In this document: piece by piece, positions 6,002-52,585 of the stretch | How the letters are laid out: every line of letters starts with the position of its first letter | Position numbering within the stretch: position 1 is the stretch's first letter | Source of the DNA: Nitrosopumilaceae archaeon | GTDB lineage: Archaea; Thermoproteota; Nitrososphaeria; Nitrososphaerales; Nitrosopumilaceae | DNA: 64,000 nucleotides | Reading direction: 5' to 3' | NCBI GenBank assembly: GCA_965207375.1 | Contig: CBDBMG010000003.1 | Coordinates: 640,001 to 704,000, forward strand | Position numbers and translations under genes: made by a program | Notes under the pieces: model-generated | The model's input: the letters and a program-made list of their open reading frames with translations, nothing else | The model's database searches: none | What the model was told of the DNA's origin: nothing

Positions 6002-6003
6002 AT

Positions 6004-18924: not shown

Positions 18925-19799
18925 CTGTAATAAAAATGACAAAATGTTGTAATTACACCAGACATAGCTAATGCATTATATAGTATAAAATATGATTAGC
19001 TACTCCTAGTATTTTTTGAATGACTATTAACATAATGTTTAATTTTCATGTTTTGAAATTACTAAACAAGACATGGTAACACAATTAAACAATGTATGGA
19101 AGTGTATTCTAATATTTCTGAATAGTACCAAACAATTAAATGAGCAGTAGAGTTGAATAGATTATTGTCTTAGGTGTAGGTAGTAGCCACATAGCTACGT
19201 CCCAACATACGTACATGTAAAGGAAATATATAACGTTGCAAGGTTACTGTTTACCCTTGTGTATAGCTAGCTAGCTGGCTACTTGTCTACTTAAATCTAT
19301 CACTAAAGTTCACCAGAAAGCTTGTAAGTGTCTGTCACATAATTAGTATAGGTAATCAAACACATTTGAGTACAATTCAAGAATAATTATATCAGTAACA
19401 GTCAAGAAATTGCACAAGGCAAAGCCAAGCGCAATTTTGACTATTACGTGTACAATTACTCTTGAATTGCACAAAATTTATGTGATTGTCTACTAATTGC
19501 ATAGCATGACCTACGATGCCCACTCTAAACTGAGGCACACTGATTATTCCAATCTGAGACACAGTCACAAATCTTGTTCCTTCCACATTACTTGTTTTAG
19601 CAGTTTCACATTCATTGAACATATCAAAAATACGCAATGTATATAGAATCTAATGCAAATTTACTAATTAACGGATATCTTCCGCATACTACAGACTTAA
19701 TGGTTTAAAAACTAAACAATAACTTCAATTACCAGTCTTCCATTGTTATCAACAACTATAACCTGCCTATCGGCCGCCTTTGTGGCAAGTTATGAATCA

Positions 19800-20831: not shown

Positions 20832-21503
20832 ACTTGTTAAACAAGTTGACGTATTACCATCTAAAAACCAGGCCCTCTGTGTAAGTTAAACCACTGTTAA
20901 TCTAATGTATTATAATAGTCCTTAATGACGTCACCAGTAAGTCACGTGAGCAGAGACTCATCACTAAGGAACACATAGCAACGCATGCGAATTTAATTCT
21001 TCTGTTTAAACCCGCTTTGTACTCCAGTACTTTAGTGATAAAACTTTTTGAAAGTAGTATAAATTTGTTTTATGCCCAAATTCTTACTATAACACTATAG
21101 GCCAGTCTTCTTTTATAAGCTCCGCAACCCGCACGGCACGCCCACTTATAAAACTAAAGCGCTCCGTCTTGTTAGTAATGTACAACTGGTTAAACGGCTT
21201 TTACCGTGTAATGGACGGCAAATACAACACTACCTTTTCTTTGGTAGTAACACACGACGCGCTTCGTTACTAAGGCCCCGCCCATCAACAGTATCGATAG
21301 CAAGTGCCGTACAGAGAAACTGAAAGGCAGTAGGACTTGTTTGATTGGTTATTCAGACTTCGTTTCACGTGAATAGTTATTCATAGCCTGGGGGGCGGAC
21401 ACACACACATCCACACACACACACACACACACATACATCCGCACAGAAGTGATTTTAAGAAACCAGGCGTGCGCCGGCGGCCGGCGCGCGCCTGGTTTAA
21501 AAA
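20832..21503 (-). mobile_element. Family A: DINE-1/HINE-like (Helentron-associated) non-autonomous element
   Basis: Read on minus: T-run + subTIR AAACCAGGCG, nearby inverted copy CGCCTGGTTT, (GT)n microsatellite, core, 3' subTIR GCCTGGTTTT (20863-20873), terminal hairpin ACTTGTT-T-AACAAGT (20832-20846). Confidence 0.7.
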
Positions 21504-21789
21504 TTAGATATTGCCTTTGAGTGGTATGGTACGTATGTACGTAGATACTGAGCACTGATCATAGATGAACTGATCTAGCTACTCCCTACTTTGGCCACTC
21601 CTTTTCAAATTCATAATTCTTTACTATTCTAGTATGTATGTTAAAATTTTCATTGTGAAGCTATATTTGTAGATACCTAGCACATAGCTGTTAGCTACTA
21701 TCAATTTCGAGACACTTATAACCCAATCCATAAGTGCCCTACGTGTTGAGAAACCACCAAAACCATGCAGCTTCATAATTACGAAATGA

Positions 21790-22390
<601 letters not shown>

Positions 22391-24378: not shown

Positions 24379-25139
24379 TTGTGGTTACTAGCTATGTATC
24401 ATTTGGTTAACTTGTACCAGAACAATCAAGATCAATCTTAGCAAAGATCCCTAACTACATAGCTAGCCACTCTTTTTAGTTTATAATTATTATTGTTATG
24501 TTATAAGCTAAAGTTTTAATTCTCACTTTACATTATCAATCAACTTTATCTTCGTTTAATAAACACTAGTAGTTGTGCAGGGTTGTGAATTCACGCATAT
24601 TACCTGCACCAATTTATTGGAAGCATGAATTATTATTTCAACACAAAATGAGACAGGTATTTGCCCTCAATTTTTCAAAGTTACTAATATCTAGAGCTAG
24701 CTACATAGTTCACATACGTAGTTAATGTACATACATATGTATGTGGCTACTTGACATGTGTTTATGAAATGAAATTGTTTACATATTGTAGCTAATTCAG
24801 GGTGAAACCATTTTTTCAAAATAGCCAGTCAAATGTTATGATTGATCTGACTTGCCAACCACCCAATGGAGCTACGTACGTAATTGCTAAACACAAATGA
24901 TTTTTGTTACCAGGAGATAAACAAGGTACGTATAGCAGGGAATACCATATACGTACCATAGTGTAAACATCCCTCCTACGTAGCTTGTTTATCTCCTATG
25001 TAGCATTAGGTATTAAACATAAACTACCATCTACCATCTATCCATGCTTGATCTGAAATGTATCAGACAGATAAGAAGCCCTTGTGCTAATTTGTCTTAC
25101 AAATGGCCAGTGATTCATCTTGATCATTTTTATTATTTT

Positions 25140-25497
25140 AATTAAACCATGCATGCATGCACCTGGTTTCTTGAAATTGCTTTTGTCCTGGAAGTCGGTA
25201 TGTATGTTTGTGTATTTGTGTGTGTACACCCCTGGGCTATTAAAAACTATTCACATGAAATAAAGTCTGAATAGCCAATCAAACAAGTCCTACTGCCTTT
25301 CAGTTTCTCTGTACGGCACTTGCTATCGATACTATTGATGAGCAGGACTTATAATGAAACGTGTCGTAAGTAACTGCCAAAGAAGAGCATGGTAACATTG
25401 TTATTGCTGTTAATATCACAGTAAAAGCCATTTAAATTTGTATGCTTTGGTGTTCCTTAGTGTTGAGTGTTTGCTCATTTGACTTACTAGTTACATC
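25140..25497 (+). mobile_element. Family A copy, interrupted by a family B element
   Basis: AAACC...CCTGGTTTCTT start, short (GT)n, core matching reverse complement of 20950-21450. Confidence 0.7.
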
Positions 25498-26595
25498 ACT
25501 AGAATGATAAAAAATTAAAAATTTAAAAAGTAAGTAGGGATTGAACTTTGGATTCAATAGTGCTACAAAAAGTAAGGGAACAAGGAATAAGATTTTGGGA
25601 CGAGAGAACATTCTGGCATGAGATAATTTATAAAAGTTTAATCCCTACTTTTGGCAAACCTACTGAATGAAGTGAGCCAAAAGTAGGGATTAAACTTTTA
25701 TAAATTATCTCATGCCAGAATGTTCTCTCGTCCCAAAATCTTATTCCTTGTTTCCTTACTTTTGTAGCACTATTGAATCCAAAGTTCAATCCCTACTTAC
25801 TTTTTAATTTTAAATTTTTTATCATTCTAGTTTGTTTACTTTTTATACATGCTAAGCATTCAATAATCTTTTAGCAGGCGCACAAATGTTACAGGCGCTT
25901 ACATAATAATTATGCTTGTTTACAGGCGCTTGTTAACAACGCGCTGACATGGCAAAGCAGCTGTGTGATAGCAAATAACGCTCTCGAAAAAGAGCAAAAG
26001 CTATTTGTCCAAGGCTATAATCTCGAAGTTCACGATGTAATAAAGTACACGCGAAAACATCGTGCCACTGTAACTAATTATATCACGTGCAAGCCAGGTT
26101 TTTGTGTGATGCAATAAGCAGAAGCCGTTACAGGCTATCGTCACCTTTGGTGAAATTCGCACCTTGCTAAGGAATTAAAGAAGAACAAGGAAAGGAATGA
26201 AGGATAAAGGGAATCGCCATGGCGCAGTGGGTAAATCGTCTTCGGAATAAGATTTTCGTAAATGCACCGCCATTACCTTTATTGTGTGAAATTTCTGGAG
26301 CCCTACACCTAGCGCAACCCGGTCTTACGGCAGGCAGGCTGGCAGGCTGGCTGGCAGGCTGGCAGACGAAATACAGATGAATTTCGAAATTTTCAAAGTT
26401 GGCTGTAGGTCGAAATATTCGACTTGTCGTTTCGTTTAACCAAGGTACAGCATCATTACAGCCTTACCAATGCATTCCAGCTGGTTTTTTCGGGTAAAGC
26501 CTATTGCAAGGTTGATTTTTAAAGCGCGAAATTTTCCCGAAGCCGTACAATTTCTTACCAAACCCTACTATTAAGTACTACCGTACTTAATGATA
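25498..26595 (+). mobile_element. Family B: non-coding element with 334-bp terminal palindrome and 3' TACC-loop hairpin
   Basis: Palindrome 25498-25831 (spacer 25656-25675); (GGCAGGCT)-type microsatellite ~26328-26365; CCCTACT + ATTAAGTAC-TACC-GTACTTAAT + GATA at 26563-26595; reverse copy at 34630-35591. Confidence 0.75.
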
Positions 26596-27635
26596 GTCAT
26601 AGCTATATTCAACACATGTTGACTGTTTTATGTCCTTCTTGGAACCCTGCAATTATATCATATATTTAATTAGCTAGCTAGCTAGCTAGCTAGCTACACT
26701 AGTTTTGCCAGTGCATGACAACTCTAGAACTGGAATACAGGGGGCCTTAGGTCCCTGATGTATATAGGGGACCAAGGGACTACTCTCAAAATTATGAAGT
26801 TTGTGAAGTTAGGCGGCGGAAGCTGTAGCCAAGTAGGGGGCCTAACCCAAGCCAAGATTAACTATGCATGCAAGTATAGCAACAATGATCACACATTATA
26901 AATAGGGTGACCACTGCTACTGTTTATATAACAACATACACAAATTGTTTTATTAAAAACATTACAATGCAATGTCAAAACTCACTAAAGGGAATGTCAA
27001 CTGAAGCCATTTAAGTGCAAACCGTATTATCTTCTGCATACTATGCATTATTTTTGTATTTTAATTAAAGATGAACGCCTATCAAAGTTATTATTATTAT
27101 TATTATTATTACTAGCAACGATGACCCTAAACCAAGTACAGTCATTTCGGATCAATCACCAAGCGGGTAATCATTATATCAACATATAATCATAGGACAA
27201 CAATAGTCCTAAAATATCAAGTAGCCTACATCTAAAGTATAATCAGTGAATATACAAGGCCTAATCATTTGACACGTATATACAGCATTAATGAACATTA
27301 ATACATACCCTATTACTATATACGTCAGTATTACATACATACAGTAGCTGCAACAACAAATACACTGTAGCTAGCTGTACAATCAGTACCCAGCTATACA
27401 ATCAGTAGCCATTCTATCACAATGAAGCCATAGATCAAAGGACAGTACTATATGATAACTACAATACCACTGTGTGATAACTACTTCCTGGTAGTTATCA
27501 TATAGTCTGGGTAGTTATCATATAGTGAGAAAAAGTTTAAAGAGAGTTGCACCTGTCTGTTGTACTAAACACGTGTTTGTAAATTACTGCAACAAAGGAT
27601 CACAAGCCTCACAGGTGGAATTGTAATAGAAGCCA

Positions 27636-27744
27636 GTTATATCACAGTACACTCGTATGATATCTTAGTTATTAACACTCGTCCTCGGCTCCGCCTCGGA
27701 CTCGTGTAATAACTAAGATATCATACTCGCACTGTGATATAACT
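27636..27744. repeat. ~110-bp fold-back element with CTCG mismatch bubbles
   Basis: AGTTATATCACAGT ... ACTGTGATATAACT arms; pairing breaks where both arms read CTCG on the top strand. Confidence 0.75.
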
Positions 27745-28146
27745 ATAACATACACACCACAGATAATTTAATAATTATTATAATAAACTTAACACAAGCT
27801 TAGGCGACATGGCTTCTATGGTTAATTGCCCATTAGCCAGCCACTTTACAATCGACGTCACATGGCAATCCTCTCCATTAATAAAATACACGGAGAATTC
27901 CGTTCCTCGTGTACTTGTTTACAGCTTTTGTATGGCTTGCATACCACACCGCCCATCTCGACTCCCGTGTACACGCTGGGCGGGGTTGACTGGTAGGCAT
28001 TTATTAGAGTTTAAATAGCACTTTTTAAGTACAGGGAGTTAAATGAAACCCTACATATTAATGAATCGCTACTAAATGGTGATTTATTTAAAGGTTAGTT
28101 TGTGTGTCTAGAGTGCGTAGTTTAGCCAATAATTAATTATCTAATA

Positions 28147-28240
28147 CTTAATTACCTAAGACTTAATTACCTAAGACTTAATTACCTAAGACTTAATTAC
28201 CTAAGACTTAATTACCTAAGACATAATTACCTAAGACTTA
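28147..28240. repeat. 15-bp tandem repeat (CTTAATTACCTAAGA) x ~6
   Basis: Directly visible. Confidence 0.95.
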
Positions 28241-29895
28241 TATACGCCCAGTTTTGACATCACTTTTAACCGCAATTTGTATTATTCTTAGTACTTGGTT
28301 TATAATTAAAACTTTACAGCAATAGCTACAAGTACGTAGTTAAACAGAATTATAAGGTAAGAATACAAAACAAATATTGCTGAGGGAGTAGGATGGTAAA
28401 AGCATCAAATATAATGCCAGCATAATAGGTAAACTTTTTGTGCAAGGCATGCCACAAAGGCATGAATTTGAAAGTGACTATTTTTTAGTGAATCTACAGT
28501 AATTTTTTTATCAAATTAGGTATGTGATGAATGCAATGATTAAAAGTGATGAATTCAACAAAATAGATTGTAGGAGTTATAATGTAAATGTATATCTGAT
28601 GATAATGAGTGCAAAAAAACCAACATGAATCTTAAAAATATTAATTTGACCTATTAAATTTCACATTATCACTGAGAATTTCCGAGCATAATTTTAAGCA
28701 TAATAGGCTTGTTTTGGGAATTATGCTCAAAAGCATAATAGGTAATTCTAAAACATAATTGGCTCAGGCCTAGCTGGCATCCATAGGTAATTATATTTAG
28801 CTAACTAGTCAATTATAAAATGTATGTACAGAGGTGGATAAACATTTGTTACATGGACAATAATAATGGTAAGTACAAGGACAGTCAAAATCAAAATAAT
28901 TAAGAAAATGTATCCAGAAATGTGATTTAAGGGTAGATTTAATTGTACTTGCTGAATGATTAATGTTTATTGAAGGAAGATTATTCCAAATTCATGGAAG
29001 CCTATTAAAGTAGTGAGAGTTGAAGCCGTGAGCTATGGTTAAAGTAAGCAACCAACAGTGGATATGACATCTCATCGTCCTCGCTCAATAATACAAATGC
29101 CTGAGTGGGTGTCACATGTTTATTATCTCGTGTAACAGTAGCAGTGGAAAAAAGAACTTTTAAGTTTGTTGTAAAGCATGCCAAGACTGTATGCATTGAC
29201 TAGTCCCAACCCAAACATTAATCCCAACGAGCTCAGCATGGTGAACATTTACTGCTAGCTGGTTTATTTCAGCAGGTGCATAGCGTAATATTAAATACAG
29301 CCATAATATTTATCTAATATGTAATAGCTACAAGGGCTTTTAACAAGAAAACAAGTTGTACAACAACGTAAATACAACTTCTCTTCACACTATAGCTTTT
29401 AGCTTATTAATATGCACATAATATCTGAAAAATCAACTTCGCAGCATTAAGGCACTTCATGGTAACGATTAGCCTAGGAAGACACTACTTTGACTGCTTT
29501 TGTCAGTTCACTGACCATATAATTGATTTTACCTCGATTTTACCATACAATGGCTAACATTGTGGCCCCATTTAAAATGGCGGAACGAATGTTACTATGA
29601 CAATTACGTATTTTTAGAAAGAGTCTATTATATGGAACTTGTACACCATCCAAAATGCACACAACCATAGAACACATATGTACACTCTATCAAGTTATTG
29701 ACCTTGTTTGCTTCTTCGTATCAGGCAGAACACCCATGTCCATGTTATAACTATTAAATGTAGCATATACATTTAAAACAAAATGTCCATGCTATATACA
29801 TTTATACAGTGACATAAAATTATACGTACCACATGTACATACATTGTTATGCATAATCCATTTTTAAACTGTAGCTAACCATGCAGCTTTTGTGA

Positions 29896-30004
29896 TTAAA
29901 AATTAAAAAAATATAAAGTGAGTAGGGATAGATCCCTCAGTGCTACAAAGTGAACAAGGAATGAAATTTTGGCTTATAGCATGAGATAATTTATAAAAGT
30001 TTAA
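29896..30004 (+). mobile_element. Family B palindrome-arm fragment
   Basis: AAAGTGAGTAGGGAT...GTGCTACAAA...GCATGAGATAATTTATAAAAGTTTAA matches 25510-25640. Confidence 0.6.
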
Positions 30005-30158
30005 AGCATACAAGGCATGGAAACTTATGTATTTAATGTAAATATTATATAATGATTACTACGTATAAGTAAATGTCCTATCAACATGCAACAATAAAAT
30101 TATTTGCATACATACTCAATAGCTGCTAAAATATCTTATTATTTTTATAGCTACTCAC

Positions 30159-30534
30159 TACTGATTGAAGATCAGTGTAAAATAATCACTACTATAAACT
30201 GGTTGACTTGCATTAATCATTACTGTATACTGATACTCTCTTCCATTGTCAATTGCAGATAGTGATGATATTTCAAATTAATGAGTATAAATTGCAGAAT
30301 TATTTTTTGTATTAGTCATAATGTCATCTACTCTCCTTATCTCTACACCTCCAGTGGTCCATATAATATCAACTGAAGTAGAGATACCTCTAACAGCAGT
30401 AACAGCACAGTCTAGTGTTAGTGGATCACTAATTGTCAGATTTCTCAGTGTTTCATTTCCAGATTGTTCAAAGGCATCAGAATCATCAAATGTCTCATTC
30501 TCAGATATGGTGATTTGCACATCAGGATTAGGTA
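30159..30534 (-). pseudogene. Immunoglobulin-like domain exon, disabled
   Basis: Acceptor gtAG at 30536-30535, donor GTGAGT; PLTLDCAVTAVRGISTSVDIIW...ISSLSAIDNGREYQY; in-frame TAA at 30278-30280 and F-strand YxC changed to YxY. Confidence 0.75.
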
Positions 30535-30884
30535 CTACATAAACACAATAAAAATTGAATGTTACTGTGATTACGTACATGCATGAATATTCTATACCAC
30601 ACAAATTAGATTTTAATATTTTTATTTCATGTAAAAGCTTAAAATGTCAAATAAAGTGAGGCTGAGGCATTCTGCATTGTAACAAATACCTGCAAATTTA
30701 CACCTTCTGTGTAAATTTGTCATTTTTATTTCATGTAAAGCTTAAAAATTTCAAACAAAGCGAGGCTGAAGAGAAGTCAATAGTAACATTTTATCATTCA
30801 AAGTAATATTATATGTACCCAAGTAGCCTCTACAGTTTCTTTTCTGCTGTAAGGCTCTACATTATATCAATGCTGTGAAATTTG

Positions 30885-31430
30885 CGTGTGTGCGTGTGTG
30901 TGTGTGTGTGTGTCCTCCGGGGCCATGTATAGCTAGTGGTGTGATATGCACCCTGTGTGATTGGTTAAACAAGTTCTACTGCTTTTCAGTTTCTGTATAA
31001 TGGCACTTGCTAACAATGGGCTTGGCCACTAAACGAAGCACATCGTGAGTTACTGCCAAAAGAAGAGCAAGGTAATACTGTATTTGCCGTTCCTTTCACA
31101 ATAAAAGGTACATATTTAACTAGCTGTATTTTCCCAACAAGATGAAGTGCTTCAGCTTTAAAATTGGGCATGCTGTGTGGGTTGTGAAGCTTATAAAAGA
31201 AGACTGGTGTACAGTGTTACAGTAAGAATTTTGGCTTAAGACAAGTTTACACTACTTTTGAAAAGTTTTATCACTAAATACTGGAGTACAAAGCTGGTTT
31301 AAACAAAAGAATTAAATTTGCTATGGGTCCCTTAGTGACGAGTCTTTGCTCATGTGATTTACTCATGACATCATTAAAATACATTGAATAACAGTTGATT
31401 TATAGTGGTTTAACTAGATTGTAAAACATC
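30885..31430 (+). mobile_element. Family A copy
   Basis: (GT)n followed by core homologous to 25200-25490 and reverse of 20850-21350. Confidence 0.7.
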
Positions 31431-31739
31431 AACTTCTTGAAGTATACAATTGCTCTATTGTTTGAGTGCAAGCATAGGTGGCAAGAGTGGGGGCTGGAGG
31501 GGCTAGAACACCCCCAACATTCAAAGAAAAAAACCTACAACATTAATGAATTGTGATGTCATAAATAATTACAAATTACTCTAAACAGTCATTTATCTTA
31601 TGTAATTGTAAAAGATACCTGCAAATTTACACCTTCTGTGTAAGCAAGTTTAGATCTTATACTTCTTAAATTACGTATGGCTTCCTGGCCACTATAAATC
31701 ACACACACACACTAACAAATGCTTTTTGGGAAAGTAATC

Positions 31740-32110
31740 TCTATAAATCAGGTGCACGACGCATCTTGTTTAAAAATTCAGAGTCATCACTAAGGAACAC
31801 ATAGCATGGCATCCACATTTAAATTTACGTCTAAACCGGACTCCAGTGGCTTAGTTAGTTTTCAGCCAAAATTATATCTGTAGCATTTTACACCAGTGTT
31901 CTTTTAAAACCTTCACTACTGCTTGGTAGCTAAGTCCACTTTTAAACTGAATCAGTGATTTGCTCATAGCAATTAATGTAAACAGCTAATACAATATTTC
32001 TTTGGCAGGAGCTTATGATGCACTTCATTAGTAAAGCCACACCCATCAATAAGATTGATGACAAATATCATAAAAAGAAACCGAGAAGAAGTAAAACTTG
32101 TTTAACTGGT
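31740..32110 (-). mobile_element. Family A diverged fragments
   Basis: gtcatcactaaggaacacatagc ... gatgcacttcattagtaaagcc homologous to 21900-22220. Confidence 0.55.
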
Positions 32111-33738
32111 TCTTCAAGTTTCATTAAGATTCCATTGTACTATATATCCATCTTATCCATGGTACGTACAATAGGATGGGATGAACAGTACATATACGTA
32201 TGTAAATGGATAGTAGGATTCCATTTTACTTATCCTGGTCATGGTACAATAGGACAGACAGTGTGTTTTTTCAAGGTAAACTTATAAGTACACATTTAAA
32301 GATAGAGCTATTGGACAAAGGGATATCCTCTTTAGAACAGTGAATTCTAATGACAAACTTGGAGTCGACTAACCACCACTCAGACAAAATTACCACCACT
32401 CAGATACAGATAAAATGACCACAACTAAAAACTCACTGACCAGTACTAAAATATCAGAATGCTTAAGTCTTGCTAGGCATGCACTTTACACAAAACAAAA
32501 TATCTACAAGGAATCCTAGACACAATTTGAGCATAGTTATTAAAGATCACTAAGATTCAGAGATTTAAAACACCTTTGTGTTACCACTGCCTACTAAACC
32601 TGGGCACATCCCTGCATCTTGGCAGCAATATACGTATCAATAATATTGTTAGGGTGGGCATTATTAAGGAATCATTTGTCACACATGATACACACATGTG
32701 TAATTTATTTGCTGGTAAGACCATACAAACCTACTTTTGTACTAACGCTTAGTAGTACGCACCTATAAATATCGATAGCTATATGTACCTCTATATCTCG
32801 CTTACACTTCGCAGTAAGGACAACAACACGGTGAAAGTATTTCTCACCAGATTTGCTAAAGGGGACCTTAAACACATACCCAATTTTTCAACTCTAAAGA
32901 AACATAACTAGTTTTTTTTAGCAATGAGTCTTCAGTTTTGTAACTTCCTCACAATATCATTGCATATTCTTAGTATATTAAACTTGTAGTGGCTGGTTTT
33001 TAGATGGTTTGCTTTAACAAGGTCCTTCCATTGCTATGAAGAACCTTCCAAAAATTGTAACAAATTCCTTTTATAATAGCACTTACAATAATCAATTGTG
33101 GGTTTGAATTTCAACAATACATTTCCACTTATACACATTTACTTTACAACAACAAGGTCAGTAACACATGAGGAAAGTATTTCAATGATAAAAATTACAA
33201 ATATTCGATTTGTTTGGATATTCGTTAGAATTTGGTTATTCGAATAATAAAATCAATATTCGGTATTCGTTTACTTATGTGTTATGAAATGTACAGTTGG
33301 AAATAGCTTTAATTACCTGCAATTTTGCTACAAGCAGTCTTGCATTACACTTAGTAAACTTGTACTATCAACAAATACTAAGATTTGGGGATTAATTCAT
33401 ATGTACTAAACTCAAATAATTATCATGGTATTCTGCTTGTACTGTAATGTATTTTTAGCATTAACAAATAGTTCGGTGTTCGTTCGTTAAGACGGTATTC
33501 ATTGCAGCCCTAATAAAAATAGTGGTAAGAACCAACTACGTATATTCATTGCATACATAATAAACTTTTCTGATAGACAGTGTCTGACACTCCTGTGAGG
33601 TCCTATTTAACTAACTTAGTTATATTCCTATTGTACGGACATATGTGCATATATAATATTGGCAAATTTTCCATTCGATCTCGAAACTTGTAATTTCCTG
33701 GCTAACAATTTGTCAACATGGTAACTGCATGAATTGCA

Positions 33739-33922
33739 TACTGTATAGTGCAAAAGTTTGATGGTGGAAAGCTCTTGACAATTTTGACGAATGGCTAGCA
33801 ATTCATCAAAGTTTTCCTACCAACAGTCTTCTCTTAATGCTTATCCTTTGAAACCCATAATCACAAATAATTCATCAAAGTTTTCCCTTGTTAAACTTTT
33901 TTGTGAATGGTTTTTCCTGCTT
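33739..33922. mobile_element. TA-flanked MITE (C[CT]GTA termini, Tc1/mariner/pogo-like)
   Basis: TACTGTATAGTGCAAAAG ... TTTTTGTGCTATACAGT. Confidence 0.55.
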
Positions 33923-34629
33923 AATTTTTGTGCTATACAGTTTTCTATGGCAGAAAGTACACATGTTATGATTATCACAAAAAGATGACATCATGCACAA
34001 CATTGATAGCAACGCATATGCATTTAAATTTGTAGCTTAAAAGGTAGACTGTATTAATAAACTACTGGTAATATATCTGACTCACTCCTTTTATAGAAGC
34101 CACTCTTGGTTAGTAGCCGTACCTAAAATGGCTAAAAATACTTGTAGACATCATTCTAGAAAATACATTTTATTCAGTACGTAGTTACAGCCCTTTGCCA
34201 GATAAAAGTTATGCCATAGATCAGGAAGATGTCGGTGTTACAAAATTTCGTAAGGTTAATACTTCTACGAAATTAAAAAACACGAACATTTCTTTTTATT
34301 CTACAATTTATTTTATAATGCACGCTTACTAGTAAGTAACAGCAGAAAAGCGAACAAATCTGTGATATTGCTCTAGGAAGATGCCCTACGGTGATTAATA
34401 GTCTGGCGTAGCCGACCCATTTATGTGGCTCCCTTCTGAAAATAAAATGGTCTGGTATGCCTAGCATATAGTGCACTTGTGCCATATTATGTTGCTTTCC
34501 TCATTTGCCGTCTATTTAACCTTCTTCTTCAGTAAGCGCATCACGGGACTTCAAAGGGGAGGTGTTAACTAATGCAACATGGACAGCTCGTAAGACATCA
34601 AAGAAATTTTTGCCGGTTGCCGATCCCAG

Positions 34630-35591
34630 GTACGGAGTCTAAGTAGTACTTAATAGTAGGGATTGACACAAAAAACATGGTGTCCTACTTTTACGGGCCT
34701 CAATAACACGTGTCACAATATACCTTACCTAAAAAACTGACTGAAATGCATTGGTAACACTATAATAAAACTGTACCTTTGTTAAACGCCACAAAAATCC
34801 TACTGATGTGATCCATAAAGAATTTTTAAAAATTTAGTATTTTGTCTGACCACTGGCCTGCCGAACTACCGTAAGATCCACCAGCACTAGGAGTATGGCT
34901 CCATTTTTCACACAACAATGGTAATTGCATCCGATTTATAAAACTGTTCTTCAGATGAAGATTCATCCACTGCACCATGGTGTTTCTTTTCAAACTTCAG
35001 TATCTTCCTTTTTCTTTATTTGTGCCATTAAAAAAGGCAGAAATTCACAAGAGCAGGTGTCGATGAACTTGCGCCTTTGTTACGCAAAACAGCCTTGGTT
35101 TGCTTTTTGTGGCATACTTGCATAGTATATACATTTGCCTGCATAATCACATAATATAAATTAATCTGTCCTTACTTTTCTAGACACCTAAATCATTAGA
35201 GGCGCCTACCTAACTATATTTTACAGGCGCTTGTTAACAAGAGCGTTAACATGGTAAAGCAGCTGTATTATAGCGAAATACTTTTAAAAAACATCAAAAT
35301 CTATTGTCTAAGTTACGTATATATATTGGCTCATATTATGAAGTTCATGATGTAATAAAATACACATAAAAAACAGTAAAAACAGTATTAATGGCAGGCG
35401 CATTGCTAATTATGTCACATGTGACTAGAATAAATAAAATTTTAAAAAATAAGTATAGGGATCAATCTTTCACTGTGAGCCAAAAGTAGGGGTTAAACTT
35501 TAGTGCTCTCTTATGCCAAAAACTTGTTCCTTGTTTCCTTACTTTTTGTAGCAGTGAAATATTGATCCCTACTCACTTTTTAATTTTTATC
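34630..35591 (-). mobile_element. Family B copy (reverse; palindrome internally deleted)
   Basis: GTAGTACTTAATAGTAGGGATT end at ~34643-34664; caggcgcttgttaacaa block shared with 25920-26070; arm remnants 35423-35591. Confidence 0.65.
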
Positions 35592-37149
35592 AAGACTCAC
35601 GGTAGTGAGTTGCGAGGCCAAGAAGAAGCAGGCCGTACACGACAAATGAGTGAGTTATTTACACGTAGCACTGCTGCGAAATTTGTTTACGCCGCCATTG
35701 AAGCTATTGCTTAGTTATCTAGGACTTAGCATGTTCTAACTATATAGAATCAATAATCAGACAATGGAGGAAATCGGCATAGCCAGTCCTAAGTACCAGC
35801 CATTGCAAGTTTAATGGCACCCGTTTGTGCACCCACACTCAAAAAGCCATCCCCTTGGCACCCATTCACTCATTTACTAAATAAATAGTACCTTCAATGT
35901 ATGAAGAATCGTTGATCTGAAGTCGTTTGATATCCATGAGACGAGTTTTCCGCACGCGCCTTATAAACTCTTCCTTCCATCAAGGCGCTTGTCGGTTTTT
36001 TTCTTCTTCTGATTCTACTTTCAATTTTTATCGCACACTGTTCGTGGGCTTGTGGGAGTTTGTGTGAATCCTGAAAGTTTTTTCAAACTCTCTTTTTGCG
36101 TATTCATTTGTTTGTGCAATAACTCACTTATTTCTTAATGGATTTCAGCCAAAACTTTTATCAGCACTTCTTCCATGTATGCCCTACCTGTCATACCATT
36201 TTCAGCCTGTAAAAAGCACTTGAATTTATTTGTGATGGGCTATTACACTGCAGGTTGACAGTTACCATAACTTGGATCCCCTTCATGTGATTTGCATAAA
36301 ATTTCAGATACACAATCTATATTGATGTATTGAAAGTTTTAAAAAAATCTCGGGCCTGAGTTTTTCAATATTAAGATTTCAAAGTTGCATCTGTTTCATA
36401 TGCTTCTACATAATAGCCATACCGTACTCGTACAAATTTTCGAGGGACGTAAATTTTGCTGTTTTCGTGGATAATGTGTGGTCCACGAAAATTAAATCCT
36501 CGAAAATTTTATGTTTTATAATAGTGCGCACATAATCTATCGATACGAAATCCTGTAATCCTCGAAAATAAAATCGCAAAAATGCTGAATTTGTGGCATC
36601 CGCGAAATATACGTCCCTCGAAAATTTGTATGAGTACGGTATGCTATCAAGAAACATCCTGGATGCAAAAACTAAAGGTTTCTTGTCAGGATTTAACATA
36701 TTCTGTTTCTGAATACTTACAAAAAGCAGTGATATGCTAAACAAAAACAGCCTGGCTGTAAAAAAGTGCGAGGCCAATCAGAAGCCACAATGGTTACAAG
36801 CGATCAAAAACTCTGATATCAAGTAAGGCCAAGAAGTTGAACATTTTATTAAGAATCCTTTTACTTGAATGACATACAATAGCTTACAGGGCATTTCCAC
36901 AACTATGATTGGCTTTGTCACTTGGCCACCTTATAAAAGATGATGGTACAAAAAGGTGGCCAAGTGATAAAACCAATCATAGTTGTGAAAATGCGCTGTA
37001 AACTGTTGTATGTCATTCAAGTAAAAGGATTCTTAAAATGTTCAACTTCTTGGCCTTACTTGATATCAGAGTTTTTGGTCGCTTGTAACCATTGTGGCTA
37101 CTGATTGGCCTCGCACTTTTTTACAGCCAGGCTATTTTTGTTTAGCATA
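35588..37149 (-). mobile_element. Family C copy 1: non-coding element with 417-bp terminal palindrome and TACC-loop hairpin end
   Basis: TATCAAG-ACTCAC-GGTA-GTGAGT-TGCGAGGCC at 35588-35619; body homologous to 58043-58810; palindrome 36733-37149 with spacer 36933-36952. Confidence 0.8.
36420..36641. mobile_element. TA-flanked CCGTA MITE nested in family C
   Basis: TACCGTACTCGTACAAATTTTCGAGGGACGTA ... TACGTCCCTCGAAAATTTGTATGAGTACGGTA. Confidence 0.85.
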
Positions 37150-39645
37150 CTATTAACTCCCCCAACAATAAACCAAAATGTATAAAAGCAACCAAACCAC
37201 ATCAACAAAATGCCAATACCATGTTGCTTCCAAGTTAACTGATAAAAAGATACGTCTATTACAAAAATCATTAACCTAAACAACACCTTTAATTAAACAA
37301 GCTCTACACTTCAATATAAATGGAAATTGTAGCTATAATGTTTGTATTTAAGTTGTTCTACAACATGTTTTCTTGTAAAACTCTTGTAGAGCTACTACAA
37401 GCTAACAAGAACACAATAACCAAAACCTTTGGCATCTGGAAACTTATGAAGTGTTATCTTTTACTGCCTATAGTTATGCTTCTATAACCCTTGCTGTGGT
37501 AAAGACAAAATAACAATAGTACAATACATTGTGCTAGGTTGTTTCAATGGCATTTCAATGTAAAATTAATTACTGGCCCCATTCAAAATGGCGTCGATAA
37601 AGTGGGCGTAGTTTTGGAAAGTGTCTATAGTATCGATATTGTAGCGTTAGTTACCAATTAACCGGATGAAAAAGTAATCTGATTTTTTCGCCTGTTAAAA
37701 TACCTTATAGAACACACAGCATGCTCAATACAACAAGTAGACTACATAGAATAATGCAATGACGTATAATTCCCGCAAAACCAATCAATGATGCAATAAT
37801 CACAACCTCTAATATTTTGCGCGAAATCAATTATCAAAAACTGCATCAATTATCGGTTTCGCCATAGGCGATAATACATCAATTATCAGTCGACTCAGCC
37901 AGCAGTACATCAATTATCGTTTCAGTGCAAATCGATTTTACTGCCAGTAAGCCTACTCAAACAATTGTCCTGTATCTTTCTACATAGAGCAATTGTTCAC
38001 GAACCTGTTTTTGATCCACTTTCAAACAAAGGATAGTGATACGCATGCGTACGCGCACTGATGGTCGTCACACCTTGGTGCCAGAAACCAGCCAAACAAC
38101 CAGCTTTTCAGCCCATTTCTTTTATAACACTTTTTTGAATGTATTAACAAATCCGTTCTTCGATGTAACTTTTTTGTATTGGCAAGTTTTCTTCAGGTGG
38201 GTGAAGGAAACCAACGAAACAACCAACCTTCAAGCTCGTTTCTTTTATAACGCGGTGTTCTATTGATTAACAGACTTACCCATCGGTATAGTTAATCTCT
38301 ATTGGCAAGTATTCTCCTTTCTAGAATATTTCCCGCAAACGAACGTGTTGCCTGTCACATGCCTCTTCTGTAATGATTGAAGCTACGTATGAGGATTTGT
38401 TTGGTTGCATGTGGTTAAGGCCAGTTTTCTGGCCTTTGCATTTTCGGTGCTTTCGTAAAGTGGCCAGTATTCTGGCCTTTGCAGGTTAAGGGGTTAATAC
38501 ACTTCACATGGCACATATAGGCATGATTTCCGAAATTCACCTCAGAACTCTTACAAGCCTCTGGGGGTAACAATTAGCCAAGAAAGATCCAAGTATGCCT
38601 GCTTCAGCCAGTTCCTTGGCCATAAAGGTTGCATTTATCTTACAATGCTTAAGACTGTGGCCCTATTCAAAATGGCAGAACAAATGTTACCATGGCAATT
38701 ACGTACTTTTGGAAAGTATCTATTGATGGGTGGGGCTTTAGTAACAAAGCGGATCATGAGTTACTGCCAAAGAAGAGCAATGTAATGCTGTATTTGCCAT
38801 TCATTTCACAGTAAAAGCCGTTTAAACAGTTGTACATTATTAACAAGACGGAGCAATTCAGTTTTATAAGTGTATATGCTGCGCAGTAGCCTGGTGTAGC
38901 CGACCTTTTTATAAAAAATAAAAGGGTATGGTTACTTTAGCAAAGTGAACTTGTTCAAATGGAATGTTAATTAAGAAGCTTAGATTACACATTTCAAAAA
39001 CAACATAATCAGAAACCAAGGCAACTTACATCCCTTTCACACTATCCCTGATTACTCACAATGGATAATAACCTGGGTTGTAGAACTCAAGTTAGCTCTT
39101 GTTCACATTACTACTCAAAACTACAGGCCAATTCGAGTTCAAGATTGCACGCCAAAGTAAATATTTGTTATTCAGTGCCTATCGGAGTAATGCTGAAGTT
39201 GAAGTGACTAAAAGCAGCGAAGCGAAGAACAAGGCAGAAGGTGCACAATAGTATAGTATAGTTTCGACAAAGTGGAGCACTGCAGTACTGTCCACACCAT
39301 TTGATTTATTATCAAAAAATTGAGTATAATTACAATTTCTGTACTAGCCATTTAAAAATGTCATGATTTTTACTTTTGCCATAACTTTGAGGTTGGCTCA
39401 CTAATAACAAAAAATCTATAATAGTACAATACATCGTTGTACCTTACTTCATTCTTCTTCATCGTCCATTTCGCCATCAACATTAATATCTTCAGGCGCT
39501 ATAAATCAGCATAAAAGCACGAAAAATAACTTTTTATTATTGTCATACCTTCTTTGTCTGTAAAAGCAGACTAGCACACTATGCACGCAGAGGAGGTACG
39601 ACACACACACGTGAGCCAATACATTTAGTACAACATTCATTTCTT

Positions 39646-39853
39646 TACCGTATGGCTGGAAATTTTCGAGGGATAAAAAGTTCGCTGTTTTTGTGGATTT
39701 TGTTATAACCTTGAAAATTTTTATCCTCGAAATTAGTAATTAATAGTGCGTATTAATTGATAATTAGCTAAACCTCGAAAAAATTTTTGCAAAATGTTTT
39801 CCAGAGCTCAACTACGAAAATTTAGTCCCTCGAAAATTTCCAGCCATACGATA
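39646..39853. mobile_element. TA-flanked CCGTA MITE
   Basis: TACCGTATGGCTGGAAATTTTCGAGGGA ... TCCCTCGAAAATTTCCAGCCATACGATA. Confidence 0.85.
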
Positions 39854-40108: not shown

Positions 40109-43100
40109 ATGCCCCTACGAGAGAGAGCGCTTAATTCTACCATGCGCGTGGCACTGCGACAGATAAGGTTGCCCTTTGACCAACCATCGCCTGTTGACCA
40201 AGCAACACAGAAGCCTAGAGAGAAGTGGTCTGATGCAGAAATCGAGGCCCTTGTGGAATTCGTTTTGTTTCATTCAGCTGGAGACATGCAGTTGGCCAAC
40301 CCACAAGCAAGATGGTTTTTGGAGGAATTCTTATAGAAGAGAGCCAAAACTAGTATGCGTAGAACTGGTAAGTATATTAGATAAAATATATACTTGGCTT
40401 ATGTGAGGTTGAAATTGTATAGCCAGTGCTTGCCGATTCAAAGTTATTGGTTGGCTGTCTAAGAAGTTTAAATCACCTAAGGAGGCTGAAAAATTCTTTG
40501 CTAAAGTGGAAAGCAACTCCTCAGCAAGTGTAAACACATGCAACAGGAGCACCATGAATGTTTGTAAAAGTGTACAAACAGAAGATGTTAATCCTTCCAC
40601 TGTTTATTACTTATATGATAAGCTTTTAGCAGAGGTAAAATTGAAAGTGTTGTTCTCCACATACATGACATCTGATATGTGTGTGTCTGTCCCTGGTGAT
40701 TTTCTGACTTACACCGCAAAGGCTATGATGAATTTGAAGAGCAGTGGGCGTATTAATGTGCTCTACAATTTGGCTAAGGGAATAGGGTCACTAAGGGCTG
40801 ATGATACTACTTTAAGATTTCCGACTGATCGTATGCTGATGGGTTTAATTGAGTACATTGCTAGCTTCTATGTCTGCGATGATGTGAATCAGGTATTAGA
40901 TTACAATAAAGGTGTTTATATTATATAATATTATTGCCTGCTTACTACAAACAATCATACAATACTATTTGATTACTTAAATTTAGTAGGACCTGAAGTA
41001 GCACCTTGCTTATTGTTCACTACAGCATAGGGCTCTCCATTGCTGTTAAATGTGAATTATAAGTAAACTATTATGTAGAGTACTATTGGTTATATAGATT
41101 ACTTGTCCAGTTGATTATCGTTTGTGGCAACAAACAATGTTTAGCCAATTTGGAATTAAGTGGACAGCATTACATCACGGACCACTGTGGAGTGCAGCAT
41201 CTAATGATGGAGAAGTCAATTCAAACAAACGAGACCCAATGACAGTAAGGATTTTTAAAAAATACTTGTTCTAGACATACAATGTTTTACAGGCTTTAGT
41301 TAATATACTGGCACTTTCTGTAAGGACCTTGGAACGGGATATTGCTTCTAGTGGTGTAACATTGAACTCTCAAATACAAGTATGACTTCTTGTTCTATCT
41401 ACACACACATGAATATCGTAATTTCTAGCTAAGTGTTCTTGATTAAGCTGTGAAGTCACACCCTACTGCATGGTGGTGGCTGAAAGCTGATGGATGTGAC
41501 TTGGTCAAGGGTCTCAAAGAATCTGTGAAATTACAGTGGAGTGGAGATGTAGATTTGAATGATGGCCAACTCCAGAAACAGTATAAGGCATAGGCGTCGG
41601 AACCGGGGGGCCATGGCCCCCACAGATTTTGTAAAATGTATTTTGGCCCCCCCACTTTTTACCAGCTTAACCTAGGATGGCCAGGATGTTTCCAGTCAAG
41701 CAAACACAAGTCTACATACTATTAATGCTATTGTATTCTAATATATTAGAACGAGTAATTTATTTTGAGCTAACAAGTATACAAGATTCGATCCAGTACC
41801 TTTTTATGAACAAAAGTTGTTTCATCATTAAAATATCAAGTAAGTCTTGAAAGGAAAATGAAGACATAAGTTAAATAAAACGGTGTTGTATTCTAATATA
41901 TTCGAGTGATTAATAAATGTTGATCCAGTAATTGAATGAGGTTAGTGAGTAAATAAGTTAGCTTTTTGTTTATAGAGTGTAAGCAAAGCTTATTACTGTC
42001 TATATGTAGAGAATGCCTACAACTCAGTGCTTATCGGCCTCCCACGCAATTAATTATATATTCTGGAAATTAGAAGCTATATAGCTAGCTAGACTAGCTA
42101 GTATATGAGTGTTGTGATTAGTCATTCCTAAGCTAGATCCCATGCATTAATAGCTATTTTAGCTGAGATAGGTAGCTAGTTAGTCTACTATAGCTACTAG
42201 CTACTTGTTTCATATAGCCATAATTTTTAAAAAATTCTATTAGACATACAATAGCTATAGCTAACTGTATAACTAATACCTAGTAACCATTAATCATGCA
42301 GCTAACTAGCTATAATCAATCATGTTATTCAGTTCAAGCTGTGATAATGGCATTGATTCAGTGAAATCATTTCCTATCATTTCTTGCATAAACTGCCACC
42401 AAAATCAATCTCAGAGCATGTAATTTTCCAAATTTTCCTGGGGGGACATGCCCCCAGACCCCCCTAGCTTTAGCATGCTTCGCATGCTGATTGTGCTTCG
42501 CACAACATAGCTGATAGGACTAAAAGCTATTCTAACATCACATTTTGGCTGGCTATGCTGGTTACTGAGAATATATTTGGCCCCCCAGTATAAAACATCT
42601 TCCTATGCCTATGGTATGAGGAATATGTGAGCCTTTTGGAGTCAGTGAAGAAGGCTGGCCTAGTGCCAGAATGTGGCTCCAATGAACTAACACATATTTT
42701 GGAGGATGTTACAAAAGATTTACAATATGTTCAATCAGGTATGCAGGGTTAATGTATTGACAATAATCATACCATGTTATGTTTAGAATTAAAGAATTCA
42801 AATGATACTTATTCCCGTAAGCTTCAGTCTGATCACTACAAGGAGAAGGATCTGATATCCCTTGCTTGGAAAGTCAAGGAGATCAGTCAGCTAGATAACA
42901 TGGGCCGGAAATGTTACAGAGACACCAGCAGTATAGTAGAGAAGATTTAGCGGGATCAGGACTTGTGGCAAGAAGAGAATATCCCAAAGCAGTTGACAAG
43001 CATCCGACAAAGCTTGATTTCATTCATCAAGGGAATTACTCGTCACCAGCGAATAGCTGCAACTCATATTCTGGTCTTCATGATCAGCTGTGAAGAAAGA

Positions 43101-43876
43101 AGATCAAAACCTTATGCTCTTCCTGTTCAGTGTATACCATATAAAGTGATATAAAGATCCGTGAGTTAGCCAACAATGTTATTCAAGAAATGGTGAAAAG
43201 AAATATGAAAGTAGCAGGTACTAATCTCTTGTATACTCAGTTGTTCGAATAATTGTATCTGTAAAAGCTAGGTTTTACTACTGATGTTGAATGAAACATT
43301 CTGCGAACAAAAGGAAATAGTCAGCCGTTGTCTGTATTTCAAATCTGTAGTGAAGCTAGAGCAAAATATTCACGAATGAAATTACAAAAGATGATTGCAA
43401 TGATCACTCCTCTCTGTATGTACTTGGTTGTAATGATAGTTCCGTTATACATATTATTTTTTTAGGTAATGCGGATGGATAAATCACTGCCACAATTCCT
43501 AATGCTGCTGTGGATGTTACTCTGCTTAAGCAAATATATGGTTGGACCAAAGCAGGTGCGACAGAAGATGATGTGATCGACCGTTTACAACTTCAAGCTG
43601 TACCAACTGGCTACACTATTCACACCTGGACAGAAGGTTTGTGTGATCATGTACGTATATACGTAGAAGTGGCCTTTATATTTTTATGATGCAGGAAAAC
43701 AGGAAAGCAAACTAGAGAAGTTGAAATCTATTTTGGCTCAACTTGAATATAAACATCAAGTCATGTTGTGGGTGTCAAAAGGAGTGCCTTTTAATAATCA
43801 TCTTTATGTGCCTGAAGCCCACCCTATAACAGGTTTGGAATTTTGTGAACGTGAGGATGAAGGTGACGTCTTTAAG
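40109..43876 (+). pseudogene. Nine-exon P-element-superfamily (THAP9-like core) transposase pseudogene with N-terminal Myb/SANT-like domain, 3' truncated
   Basis: Exons ~40109-40367, 40423-40892, 41098-41244, 41293-41379, 41429-42738 (minus insertion), 42787-43217, 43272-43416, 43466-43637, 43695-43876 with GT-AG bounds. Motifs WWLKADGCDLVKGL..WSGDVDLNDG (D1), ATHILVFMIS..KPYALPV, MKVAGFTTD (D2), EREDEGDVFK (DxxH-like, H replaced by D). Several stops and frameshifts. Confidence 0.7.
41589..42613. mobile_element. hAT-type non-autonomous element inserted in transposase exon 5
   Basis: CATAGGCGTCGGAA ... TTCCTATGCCTATG; 8-bp TSD gtataagg/gtatgagg; removal restores CAG TAT GAG GAA frame. Confidence 0.85.
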
Positions 43877-43930
43877 GTAAGTTCTACTAAATGACAACAT
43901 AATGTGCTAGATTTTTCTTTAAGTATATGT

Positions 43931-45829: not shown

Positions 45830-46100
45830 ATGTATTTAATGATGTCACCAGTAAGTCACATGAGCAAAGACTCATCACTAGGAACACATAGCAACGCATA
45901 CACATTTAATTATTCAGCTTTATACTCCAGTACTTTACTGATAAAACTTTTTAAAGCCGAAATTCTTACTGTAACACTATAGGCCAGTCTTCTTTTATAA
46001 GCTTCGCAACCTGCACAACATGCCCACTTTTAAAACTGAAGTGCTCCGTCTTGTTAGTAATGTACAACTAGTTAAATGCCTTTTACTGTGAAATGAACAG
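45830..46100 (-). mobile_element. Family A fragment
   Basis: gtcaccagtaagtcacatgagc...ggccagtcttcttttataagc matches 20930-21200. Confidence 0.7.
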
Positions 46101-46241
46101 CATTTACAGCTAGAAAAATTATAAGCACTAAATAGTTGCAGAGCTGTAAACTGATAACCATATTACACAACTACAGCATCAGTCATAAAATACTGTACAT
46201 ATAAGTATATCATTTTGATGTCGATACATCGATACCATGAT

Positions 46242-50468: not shown

Positions 50469-52585
<2,117 letters not shown>

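Follow-up and report, generated by a model that had tools for sequence, protein, structure and literature searches.

We identified the same end design in two unrelated repeat families, termed B and C, within a stretch of 64,000 nt (the window; positions 640,001 to 704,000 of contig CBDBMG010000003.1, assembly GCA_965207375.1, filed as Nitrosopumilaceae archaeon). One end of these elements consists of a palindrome of 334-426 bp with a spacer of 20-24 nt, and the other end of a short motif followed by a hairpin with a stem of 6-9 bp and the loop TAYC (Y being C or T), by ...TGA and by TA. The original prediction, made from the sequence of the window, had proposed an end grammar common to B and C; this observation is real and confirmed, its interpretation is borne out in part, and the design matches the one published for Helitron2/Helentron/DINE-1 elements. 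Most likely, B and C represent a new structural variant of Helitron2/Helentron-type elements and not a new class of transposons.

One end design in two unrelated families

Both families were defined by self-BLAST together with direct reading of the window sequence, family B comprising B1, B2 and B3 and family C comprising C1, C2 and C3 (Table 1). Self-BLAST of the window gives zero sequence similarity between B and C, in line with the dissimilar bodies described before, and the strings previously quoted for the ends of both families were all recovered in place. B1 adjoins on its 5' side a truncated copy of another repeat, family A, ending near 25499, and its 3' boundary was fixed by analogy with family C and by the loss of similarity to B2. 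In B2 about 100 nt of the inner arm, i.e. the arm facing the body, are deleted, and its 5' TA (35589-35588) doubles as the TA following C1; B3 starts with TA-AAAATT, as does B2.

The palindromes of both families are long and closely paired. The arms of B1 show 99, 93 and 94% complementarity across three inverted-repeat matches, and in C3 (palindrome 43931-44356) 199 of the 201 nt of each arm are paired around a spacer at 44132-44155 reading ...GATGA|TAGTAC.... The C2 palindrome occupies 59184-59536, C2 having lost the distal 60 nt of its inner arm as well as about 100 nt of its body. A spacer of about 20 nt had been noted for both families; we find 20 nt in B1, C1 and C2 and 24 nt in C3. Folded as single strands, the palindromes reach -168 kcal/mol in B1 (z = -39) and -244 kcal/mol in C3 (z = -46).

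At the opposite end, the small hairpins stand out from the background of the window. Perfect hairpins with a 4-nt loop and at least 6 bp of stem number 108, and the loop is TACC or TATC in just three, which are those of B1, C1 and C2. GATA follows within 0-3 nt in all three, compared to 7 of 216 strand readings with GATA within 5 nt overall. Measured against 200 shuffles each, the hairpin of B1 folds with z = -4.0 (none as good), that of C2 with z = -3.0 (2/200) and that of C1 with z = -2.2 (8/200); in B2 the fold is absent, 90/200 shuffles being as good. The C2 hairpin (58066-58049) has a 7-bp stem, and the loop TATC reported earlier for this copy is confirmed. Other hairpins followed by GATA (12840, 32189, 41135, 55439) come without a matching palindrome or motif, and no hairpin is present at the other two ACTACCGT sites (4374, 34865).

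The motif preceding the small hairpin recurs in the palindrome arms of both families. In C1 it is GGCCTCGC, ending at 35619 on the minus strand, which reads GCGAGGCCAA on the plus strand at 35612-35621. We counted 21 matches to AGTAGGGWTT (W being A or T) in the window compared to 8.0 expected, and seven matches to GCGAGGCCAA compared to 1.0 expected, one per arm of every C palindrome and one per C 3' end; both counts lie above every shuffle. The motif had been described as recurring near the tip of the palindrome, which stands for family B, where AGTAGGG is found beside the spacer and also 33 nt from the outer end; in family C, GCGAGGCC lies 36 nt from the outer ends and not at the centre. 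The common design is deeper than first noted: each arm carries its family motif three times in B as well as in C, in the same order and orientation, two copies in one direction and one reversed at the tip, and the outermost copy is preceded by an A-rich leader ending in AAAAAGT, of 33 nt (B) or 36 nt (C). Among the arm copies of B1 is a looser one near 25572 (+), mirrored in the opposite arm. Compared to the reverse complement of the 3' copy, the 5' repeat of B, AGTAGGGATTG, agrees in 10 of 11 positions, and the repeat pair of C in 16 of 18. Motif and hairpin are separated by 0 nt in B and by 1 nt in C, ...TGA lies 24 nt and 22 nt from the 3' repeat, respectively, and the element ends 2-5 nt after the hairpin stem. 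The symmetry of the palindrome takes in the outer TA, the inner arm likewise ending in TA in both families, which hints at one TA belonging to the element; a palindromic MITE (miniature transposable element with inverted repeats) flanked by TA would look alike.

Table 1. Positions of family B and C elements, their end structures and the empty site in the window
Feature	Position	Strand	Description
B1, sole intact B copy	25500..26593	+	5' TA ... 3' TGA; flanking TA at 26594-26595
B1 5' palindrome	25498..25831	.	arms of ~158 nt; 20-nt spacer at 25656-25675
B1 5' inverted-repeat motif AGTAGGGATT	25533..25542	+	33 nt from the 5' T
Further AGTAGGGATT copies in B1	25640-25649; 25682-25691; 25788-25797; 26560	-; +; -; -	the copy at 26560 is the 3' copy
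B1 3' motif and hairpin	26560..26591	+	CCCTACT 26563-26569; hairpin 26570-26591, 9-bp stem, loop TACC; GATA 26592-26595
B2, old B copy	34640..35589 (start approximate)	-	66-72% identical to B1 body; 3' hairpin broken
B3, B fragment	29897..30004	+	outer arm only; cut just short of the spacer
C1	35590..37149	-	5' TA 37149-37148; 3' ...CTTGA at 35590
C1 palindrome	36733..37149	.	20-nt spacer 36933-36952, inverted relative to C2 and C3
C1 3' hairpin and motif	35595..35621	-	hairpin 35610-35595, 6-bp stem, loop TACC; GATA 35591-35588
C2	58045..59536	-	boundaries set by the empty site; TA at 58043-58044 and 59535-59536
C3	43932..45176 (end approximate)	+	3'-truncated, without hairpin end
C2 paralogous empty site	52085..52105	+	second copy of the host repeat; single TA at 52094-52095

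Insertion boundaries, further copies and evolution of the arms

The extent of the inserted unit is given by C2, which sits within another repeat of which an uninterrupted second copy is present at about 52030-52150. We scored all joins of the C2 flanks against this uninterrupted copy; the three best are equivalent and differ in the placement of TA alone. The empty site reads ...CTACTACCA-TA-ATTATA... and the filled site ...CTACTACCA-TA-[1490 nt]-TA-ACTATA..., showing that the sequence from the outer end of the palindrome to the end of the small hairpin was inserted as one unit, i.e. that the whole C2 unit of 1490 nt inserts in one piece. The empty site also divides the GATA, which had been put forward as an end motif and is present as such, into an element-final GA and a flanking TA. 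TA flanks C2 on either side and is present a single time in the empty site, which itself reads T|TA; with one empty site at hand, a 2-bp TA duplication and an insertion adjacent to TA fit alike. BLAST of the flanks of seven further loci (L001-L007, see below) and of four window ends gave no second empty site. The right flank of B1 is no continuation of the A-family repeat at its left end, local alignment scores of 14-17 being at the level of shuffles.

Across all ends of both families the flanking TA is nearly constant. After the 3' end, T is found in 10/10 and TA in 9/10 cases (TC in L006; P about 1e-8 at a TA frequency of 0.10 in the window), and in 10 of 11 5' ends the first family-specific base comes directly after TA (AA in L006), so that these ten start with T(A) if TA is counted as part of the element. 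The base preceding that TA is T in 4/11, about its base frequency. Beyond the TA, the termini of C read TGCTAAAC at one end and TCAAGACT at the other, those of B GAATGATA and TCATTAAG; they are complementary in neither family, and terminal inverted repeats of the cut-and-paste type are thus lacking. The outcome named in the original prediction as its refutation, a match to terminal-inverted-repeat transposons with target site duplications, is half borne out, the TA on both sides of C2 being compatible with a duplication as well as with insertion next to TA.

The 5' ends vary slightly, that of B1 extending 8 nt further than in B2 and B3 and those of C2 and L007 differing by 1-2 nt from C1, C3 and L001. 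The additional piece of B1 (GAATGATA) resembles the last bases of the B 3' end joined to the B 5' end and looks as if copied from a head-to-tail or circle junction. AATGATA occurs near both ends of B1 in direct orientation (25500-25509 and 26587-26595). Head-to-tail junctions exactly at the 3' end are present twice, i.e. C1 followed by B2 in the window and one copy nested in another in L007, the latter insertion being blurred at the base level.

Further copies of family C were obtained by scanning a collection of bacterial and archaeal genomes for chance inclusions with the C 3'-end pattern, resulting in L001-L007, all in records titled metagenome-assembled genomes. A 21-nt invariant stretch of the C arm gave no match in the same collection, and family B was not found in the seven loci. 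Their stretches have a G+C content of 36-42%, and the A-family repeat of the window is present in L004, L006 and L007 with up to 84% identity over 311 nt; on these grounds we take the loci as host-like DNA from the same or a related organism. By appearance, they are sponge-like host DNA caught up in assemblies whose labels say bacterial chromosome or contig. Six of the seven have GGCCTCGC or a close variant upstream, L007 lacking it. The loop is TATC in six and TACC in one, and altogether TATC in 7/9 perfect C-family hairpins of window and loci, TACC being confined to C1 and L006 in this family. The TACC loop described before thus applies to B1, C1 and L006 and is not fixed, the general form being TAYC. 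The palindrome was testable in five loci, the 5' part of L002 lying beyond the fetched stretch and the contig of L005 beginning 28 nt before the hairpin. A palindrome with both arms lies 0.8-1.9 kb upstream in L001, L006 and L007, and L003 and L004 have an inner arm only. The previously suggested link between small hairpin and long palindrome hence holds for all three TAYC hairpins of the window (0.7-1.3 kb) and with both arms for 3/5 testable loci, the other two retaining it for the inner arm alone. None of the seven C palindromes (three in the window, four in the loci) occurs without a C body.

We show that the two ends are asymmetric, the 3' end being exact, that conservation is far higher there than in the interior and that the arms change in concert. 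By self-BLAST, body and palindrome identity is 72% and 92% between C1 and C2 and 75% and 94% between C1 and C3, respectively, and the bodies of C2 and C3 are 91% identical; at the 3' end, C1 and C2 disagree at two positions over about 45 nt, and about 60-70 nt beyond the palindrome are conserved together with it. Five substitution columns and two indels are specific to one copy, yet present in both of its arms, and in L006 an identical A-to-G change is found in the outer-arm, the inner-arm and the 3' copy of the motif. Differences confined to a single arm amount to 2/201 positions in C3, 9/197 in C1 and 8/137 in C2; taken with the shared changes, pairing is maintained in active lineages and decays after insertion. 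The decay tracks the hairpin: nothing but the outer arm as far as the tip is left of B3, the inner arm is partly gone from B2 and C2, and the second copy in L001 (L001b) is missing some of its outer arm.

C1 and L006 have the spacer in the opposite orientation to C2, C3, L003, L004 and the second copy in L001, and B2 probably carries a spacer inverted relative to B1. For family C one inherited inversion suffices, as C1 and L006 also share the loop TACC. In the short forms L003 and L004, the similarity begins inside the spacer region, at TA-G(G)TAC...AAAGGTGGCCAAG; the DNA upstream is unrelated to the outer arm and between the two loci, and both are preceded by T. They are mutually closest, with 87% identity, and carry a looser motif (8/10) 13 nt from the start. 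The outer arm seems to be dispensable, as these copies start exactly at the spacer TGA|TA and lack it. The spacer of C2 and C3, ...GATGA|TAGTAC..., repeats the TGA|TA context of the 3' end (CTTGA|TA); the TGA before the loop TA is not kept in L001, L001b and L006, and the B1 spacer does not contain TGA|TA.

The bodies contain microsatellite-like runs, i.e. an 8-nt unit of the GGCAGGCT type in B1 (26330-26366) and (CTTT)n in C copies (58470-58500, 45150-45180), which recall the internal microsatellites described for HINE/DINE-1. Members of a classical MITE family with terminal inverted repeats of 42-47 nt, starting (C)ATACCGTA...TTTTCGAGGGA, are nested in C1 (36418-36643) and located at 39646-39853 and inside the C copy of L004 (758-1160 of that locus).

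Possible modes of transposition

We hold with moderate confidence that B and C are non-autonomous Helitron2/Helentron (HLE2, HINE-like) elements whose 5' hairpin is oversized and which are moved in trans by one or two closely related Rep-helicase (HUH) enzymes. In such a mode, the transposase would nick one strand at the 5' T(A) and unwind from 5' to 3', and the 3' hairpin, with the motif just upstream, would stall the enzyme and mark the second nick after TGA, much as the 3' hairpin of Helraiser has been proposed to make the helicase pause and so allow nicking of the end (PMC4778049). The freed strand would be closed into a circle and inserted upstream of a T(A), with no true target duplication. 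Since the motif differs between B and C, whereas the loop, its closing pairs and TGA|TA are shared, the short inverted-repeat motifs would probably mediate pairing between the ends rather than act as protein sites, and the TAYC loop, closed by C-G, and the TGA|TA junction would be the parts likely read by protein. The oversized 5' hairpin could represent the hairpin typical for the family, grown from about 10 bp to 160-200 bp, an expansion which had been suggested before and fits what is present; it may be extruded in cruciform shape, offering single-stranded DNA to an enzyme cutting only single strands. The undescribed transposase group invoked by the original prediction is not needed, no transposase gene being at hand and HLE2 being reported in all three sampled demosponge genomes (PMC11417382, supplement). 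Its view of the TACC loop as a recognition or nick site is weakened by TATC in 7/9 C hairpins and by the element ending 2-5 nt 3' of the stem, at TGA|TA.

Several observations weigh against the Helitron2/Helentron assignment. The 5' repeat lies 33 nt (B1) or 36 nt (C) from the 5' T compared to published distances of 0-2 nt for Helitron2 and 2-4 nt for HINE, and even the short forms hold their looser motif 13 nt in. With a T before the element in 4/11 cases, the published T|T target is unseen on the 5' side, and the C2 insertion, with TA on either flank and a single TA in the empty site, exactly matches what a 2-bp TA duplication would leave. Pfam searches did not detect Rep, helicase, DDE or recombinase domains in 44 of the 51 window open reading frames (ORFs) of at least 90 aa and in 7 shorter pieces (7 ORFs within the microsatellite at 79-1142 were left out), the matches in the window being reverse transcriptases, NB-ARC, DUF7041 and a weak MCM_bind only. 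Truncated copies of the window (C3, B3) lack 3' parts, whereas published one-ended Helitron2 copies mostly lack 5' parts. An end pairing over 18 nt could hardly open a stem of 200 bp, and the role assigned to the 5' hairpin in PMC3627910 does not transfer unchanged. Moreover, family B amounts to one intact and two damaged copies, and hairpin and CTTGA are conserved in L001-L007 by construction, as the search pattern demanded them.

An unlikely alternative is a hairpin-dependent, so far undescribed HUH system in which the palindrome is the origin, the nick is placed at the loop TGA|TA and the outer arm is regrown by fold-back (snap-back) synthesis, resembling parvovirus rolling-hairpin replication or the peel-and-paste transposition of IS200/IS605 more than Helitrons. 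The TGA|TA shared by the C2 and C3 spacers and the 3' end, and L003 and L004 starting exactly at the spacer TA with unrelated DNA upstream, meaning that a form without outer arm moved at least twice, speak for such a system, as do the spacer inversions in C1 and L006 and probably in B2 relative to B1, the concerted change of the arms, the 5' ends varying by few bases and the restriction of HUH enzymes to cutting single-stranded DNA (PMC4778049). Set against these, the loop TGA is not kept in L001, L001b and L006 and is absent from the B1 spacer, the C data need one inherited inversion and no regular flip-flop, and cutting of hairpin loops by host nucleases could also strip the outer arms. A further point counting against it is that, to our knowledge, no enzyme working in this mode exists in animals. 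Carried to its full extent, the idea would make the palindrome a working origin which, extruded in cruciform shape or folded within the displaced strand, presents the TGA|TA nick context of the loop to an HUH enzyme; starts at this position would yield the short forms L003 and L004, and the outer arm would be rebuilt by fold-back synthesis, a rolling-hairpin-like mode common to two unrelated families. Such rebuilding would explain the concerted arm evolution, the inverted spacers and the slightly variable 5' ends. We consider this extended version improbable; a hairpin-primed mode is undescribed for eukaryotic transposons.

The flanking TA raises the question of a DDE transposase with cut-and-paste activity (Tc1/mariner-like or of another superfamily duplicating 2 bp), with the arms serving as arrays of transposase-binding sites, in the manner of long inverted repeats that hold internal direct repeats, and the far end as a degenerate second end. 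Mariners duplicate TA (PMC8969392), which agrees with TA at 10/11 5' and 9/10 3' ends and with the C2 empty site; three family motifs per arm in the same order and orientation in B and C, and a palindrome which taken alone is bounded by TA on both sides, would suit such a transposase as well. We nevertheless regard this as improbable, because the real termini are not inverted repeats of each other in B or C, the shared motif is 33-36 nt away from one terminus and 22-24 nt away from the opposite one, none of the seven C palindromes is solitary, the short-form copies do not have the long arm pair and no DDE domain was found in the scanned ORFs. A double-stranded circle inserted by a tyrosine or serine recombinase (Crypton-like), TA being the crossover core and the motifs the recombinase-binding sites, is more doubtful still: short direct sequences at both ends, here TA, would mimic a duplication as at Crypton ends (PMC8969392, PMC3212892), the ends are asymmetric and the motif copies would face each other across the junction of a circle, but Crypton repeats are described as 4-6 bp long and no terminal repeats were found in animal Cryptons, recombinase sites usually consist of repeats of 11-13 bp spaced 6-8 bp apart (PMC3212892) compared to about 58 nt between the motifs here, and the 3' hairpin and the giant palindrome remain unexplained. 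The absence of any single design, i.e. a palindromic TA-flanked MITE placed by chance beside an unrelated repeat, both then being copied within a larger unit, is nearly refuted and in our view scarcely credible. The palindromes are indeed bounded by TA on both sides and better conserved than the bodies; against this, two unrelated families share the same composite, the pre-hairpin motif recurs in the arms of both, the empty site corresponds to the composite's own ends and about 60-70 nt beyond the palindrome are conserved along with it.

A reading as ribozyme, short interspersed nuclear element or retrozyme is unsupported: Rfam gave no match at the gathering score across the whole window, a search at E<=1 over 25000-37500 returned just sub-threshold look-alikes of microRNA precursors on the palindromes, and neither tRNA nor tmRNA was found in the window.

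Sequence context and relation to known systems

The window is AT-rich, with a G+C content of about 35% and 6001-8000 as its sole G+C-rich part (51%). Its DNA looks sponge-like, judging by an NB-ARC ORF (18032-18952) whose best named relatives are from the demosponge Dysidea avara with 43-47% identity, other entries reaching up to 97%. This ORF is the second of two adjoining frames at 17044-18952 (-) (NB-ARC, E = 2e-18) which have hundreds of relatives of about 600-650 aa and probably form one NLR-like gene of a large sponge family. Upstream of C3, short open frames with exon-like borders (42594-43894) include one weak MCM_bind match (E = 0.004, below the cut-off), and C3 may lie within an intron of a host gene. 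Remains of retroelements at 3453-4706 (-) and 5915-8585 (+) comprise reverse transcriptase ORFs, DUF7041 and a weak gag-aspartyl-protease match below the Pfam cut-off. The family A repeat, perhaps SINE-like, is about 600 nt long with at least six copies (20843-21467, 21789-22317, 25162-25501, 30880-31415, 38720-38886, 45824-46110), several of them truncated and some ending in (GT)n; the copy at 25162-25501 is cut exactly at the B1 start, and no tRNA-like part was found in this family. An imperfect palindrome of 110 nt (27635-27744; 80% self-complementary), with an 85% identical copy beside the C copy of L003, in its 3' flank, probably represents another small palindromic repeat family. In addition, the window contains microsatellite blocks of the (TACG/TACA)n type (205-1071, 22270-22352, 51613-51788, 56155-56408) and a 15-nt tandem repeat, ttaattacctaagac, of about seven units (28130-28240).

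The definition of the 5' end and the role of the 5' hairpin are unsettled for Helitron2/Helentron elements, and B and C provide a natural test bed with a giant 5' hairpin, paired arms kept over evolutionary time and copies apparently without outer arm. If our assignment is true, the long and short forms and the shared loop and TGA|TA indicate which parts are probably read by the enzyme and which are probably needed for pairing only. Annotation tools expecting repeats of 11-18 nt at the very 5' end would misplace the boundary or annotate the palindrome as a MITE of its own. Palindromes that are long and perfect are fragile sites, and several copies carry deletions starting from the hairpin tip, so that such families may shape the instability of sponge genomes. 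A non-exhaustive literature search yielded no description of Helitron-like elements with long 5' palindromes and, for Helentrons in sponges, only unrelated sponge papers.

Palindromic MITEs and foldback elements have long, near-perfect arms with a short spacer and motifs inside the arms. B and C resemble those of the Tc1/mariner type in these features and in TA on both sides; they differ in that both arms are located at one end, the opposite end being a small hairpin without terminal inverted repeat, whereas the arms of the former are the two ends of the element. Parvoviruses have one terminus with a long hairpin and one with a shorter hairpin, with both tip orientations and an HUH nickase acting beside the hairpin. 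B and C share the long and the short end hairpin and a tip in both orientations, yet they do not have viral genes, are dispersed and flanked by TA, and their tip inversion is possibly a single old event. With IS200/IS605 and IS91 they have in common subterminal hairpins, a lack of terminal inverted repeats, oriented insertion by a short fixed sequence and, presumably, single-strand chemistry, those systems being prokaryotic with hairpins of about 20 nt and no long palindrome. We know of no relatives of IS200/IS605/IS91 transposases moving such elements in animals.

Replitrons are HUH-type eukaryotic transposons described from plants, algae and protists, with a right-end palindrome, short direct terminal repeats and a Y1 Rep (PMC10288648). 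They do not have an inverted repeat between the ends or a 5' hairpin, and B and C do not have direct terminal repeats like theirs (6 bp in Replitron-1), AATGATA near both ends being restricted to B1 and family C having no short direct terminal repeat. Replitrons and Cryptons fit less well and were set aside. HLE1 (Helraiser) shares asymmetric ends without terminal inverted repeats and a 3' hairpin near the exact 3' end followed by T; 5' TC, 3' CTRR (R being A or G) and the A|T target are missing from B and C, and HLE1 has neither an inverted repeat between its ends nor a 5' hairpin.

The closest counterparts are Helitron2 and HINE. Helitron2 starts with T and carries a short (8-18 nt) asymmetric inverted repeat between its 5' and its 3' subterminal region; its 5' repeat lies 0-2 bp from the end and pairs downstream into a 5' hairpin, its 3' repeat stands about 20-30 bp from the end with a hairpin directly downstream (PMC3627910), and insertion of this type occurs upstream of a T (PMC8969392). 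HINE/DINE-1 elements have subterminal repeats of 11-15 bp, a 5' complementary repeat of 7-12 bp at a distance of 1-12 nt, a 3' stem-loop of 5-11 bp, no target duplication and a TT target (PMC4067079, PMC2374699, PMC7492417). B and C differ from Helitron2/HINE in a 5' stem of 158-201 bp compared to 7-15 bp, i.e. about 15 times longer, in a 5' loop of 20-24 nt compared to 1-12 nt, in three motif copies per arm and in a flanking TA instead of a T-rich or TT target; from mite HINE they further differ in the distance between hairpin and end, which is 2-5 nt compared to about 8-35 nt. With HINE/DINE-1/Cg_HINE, B and C share a noncoding body, a subterminal 3' repeat directly before the stem-loop, a 5' copy within an inverted repeat or hairpin, conserved ends with a variable interior containing microsatellite-like runs, the T start and insertion upstream of T, as well as head-to-tail neighbours, and the head-to-tail junctions of B and C fit the tandem and near-end insertions reported for Helitron-like elements.

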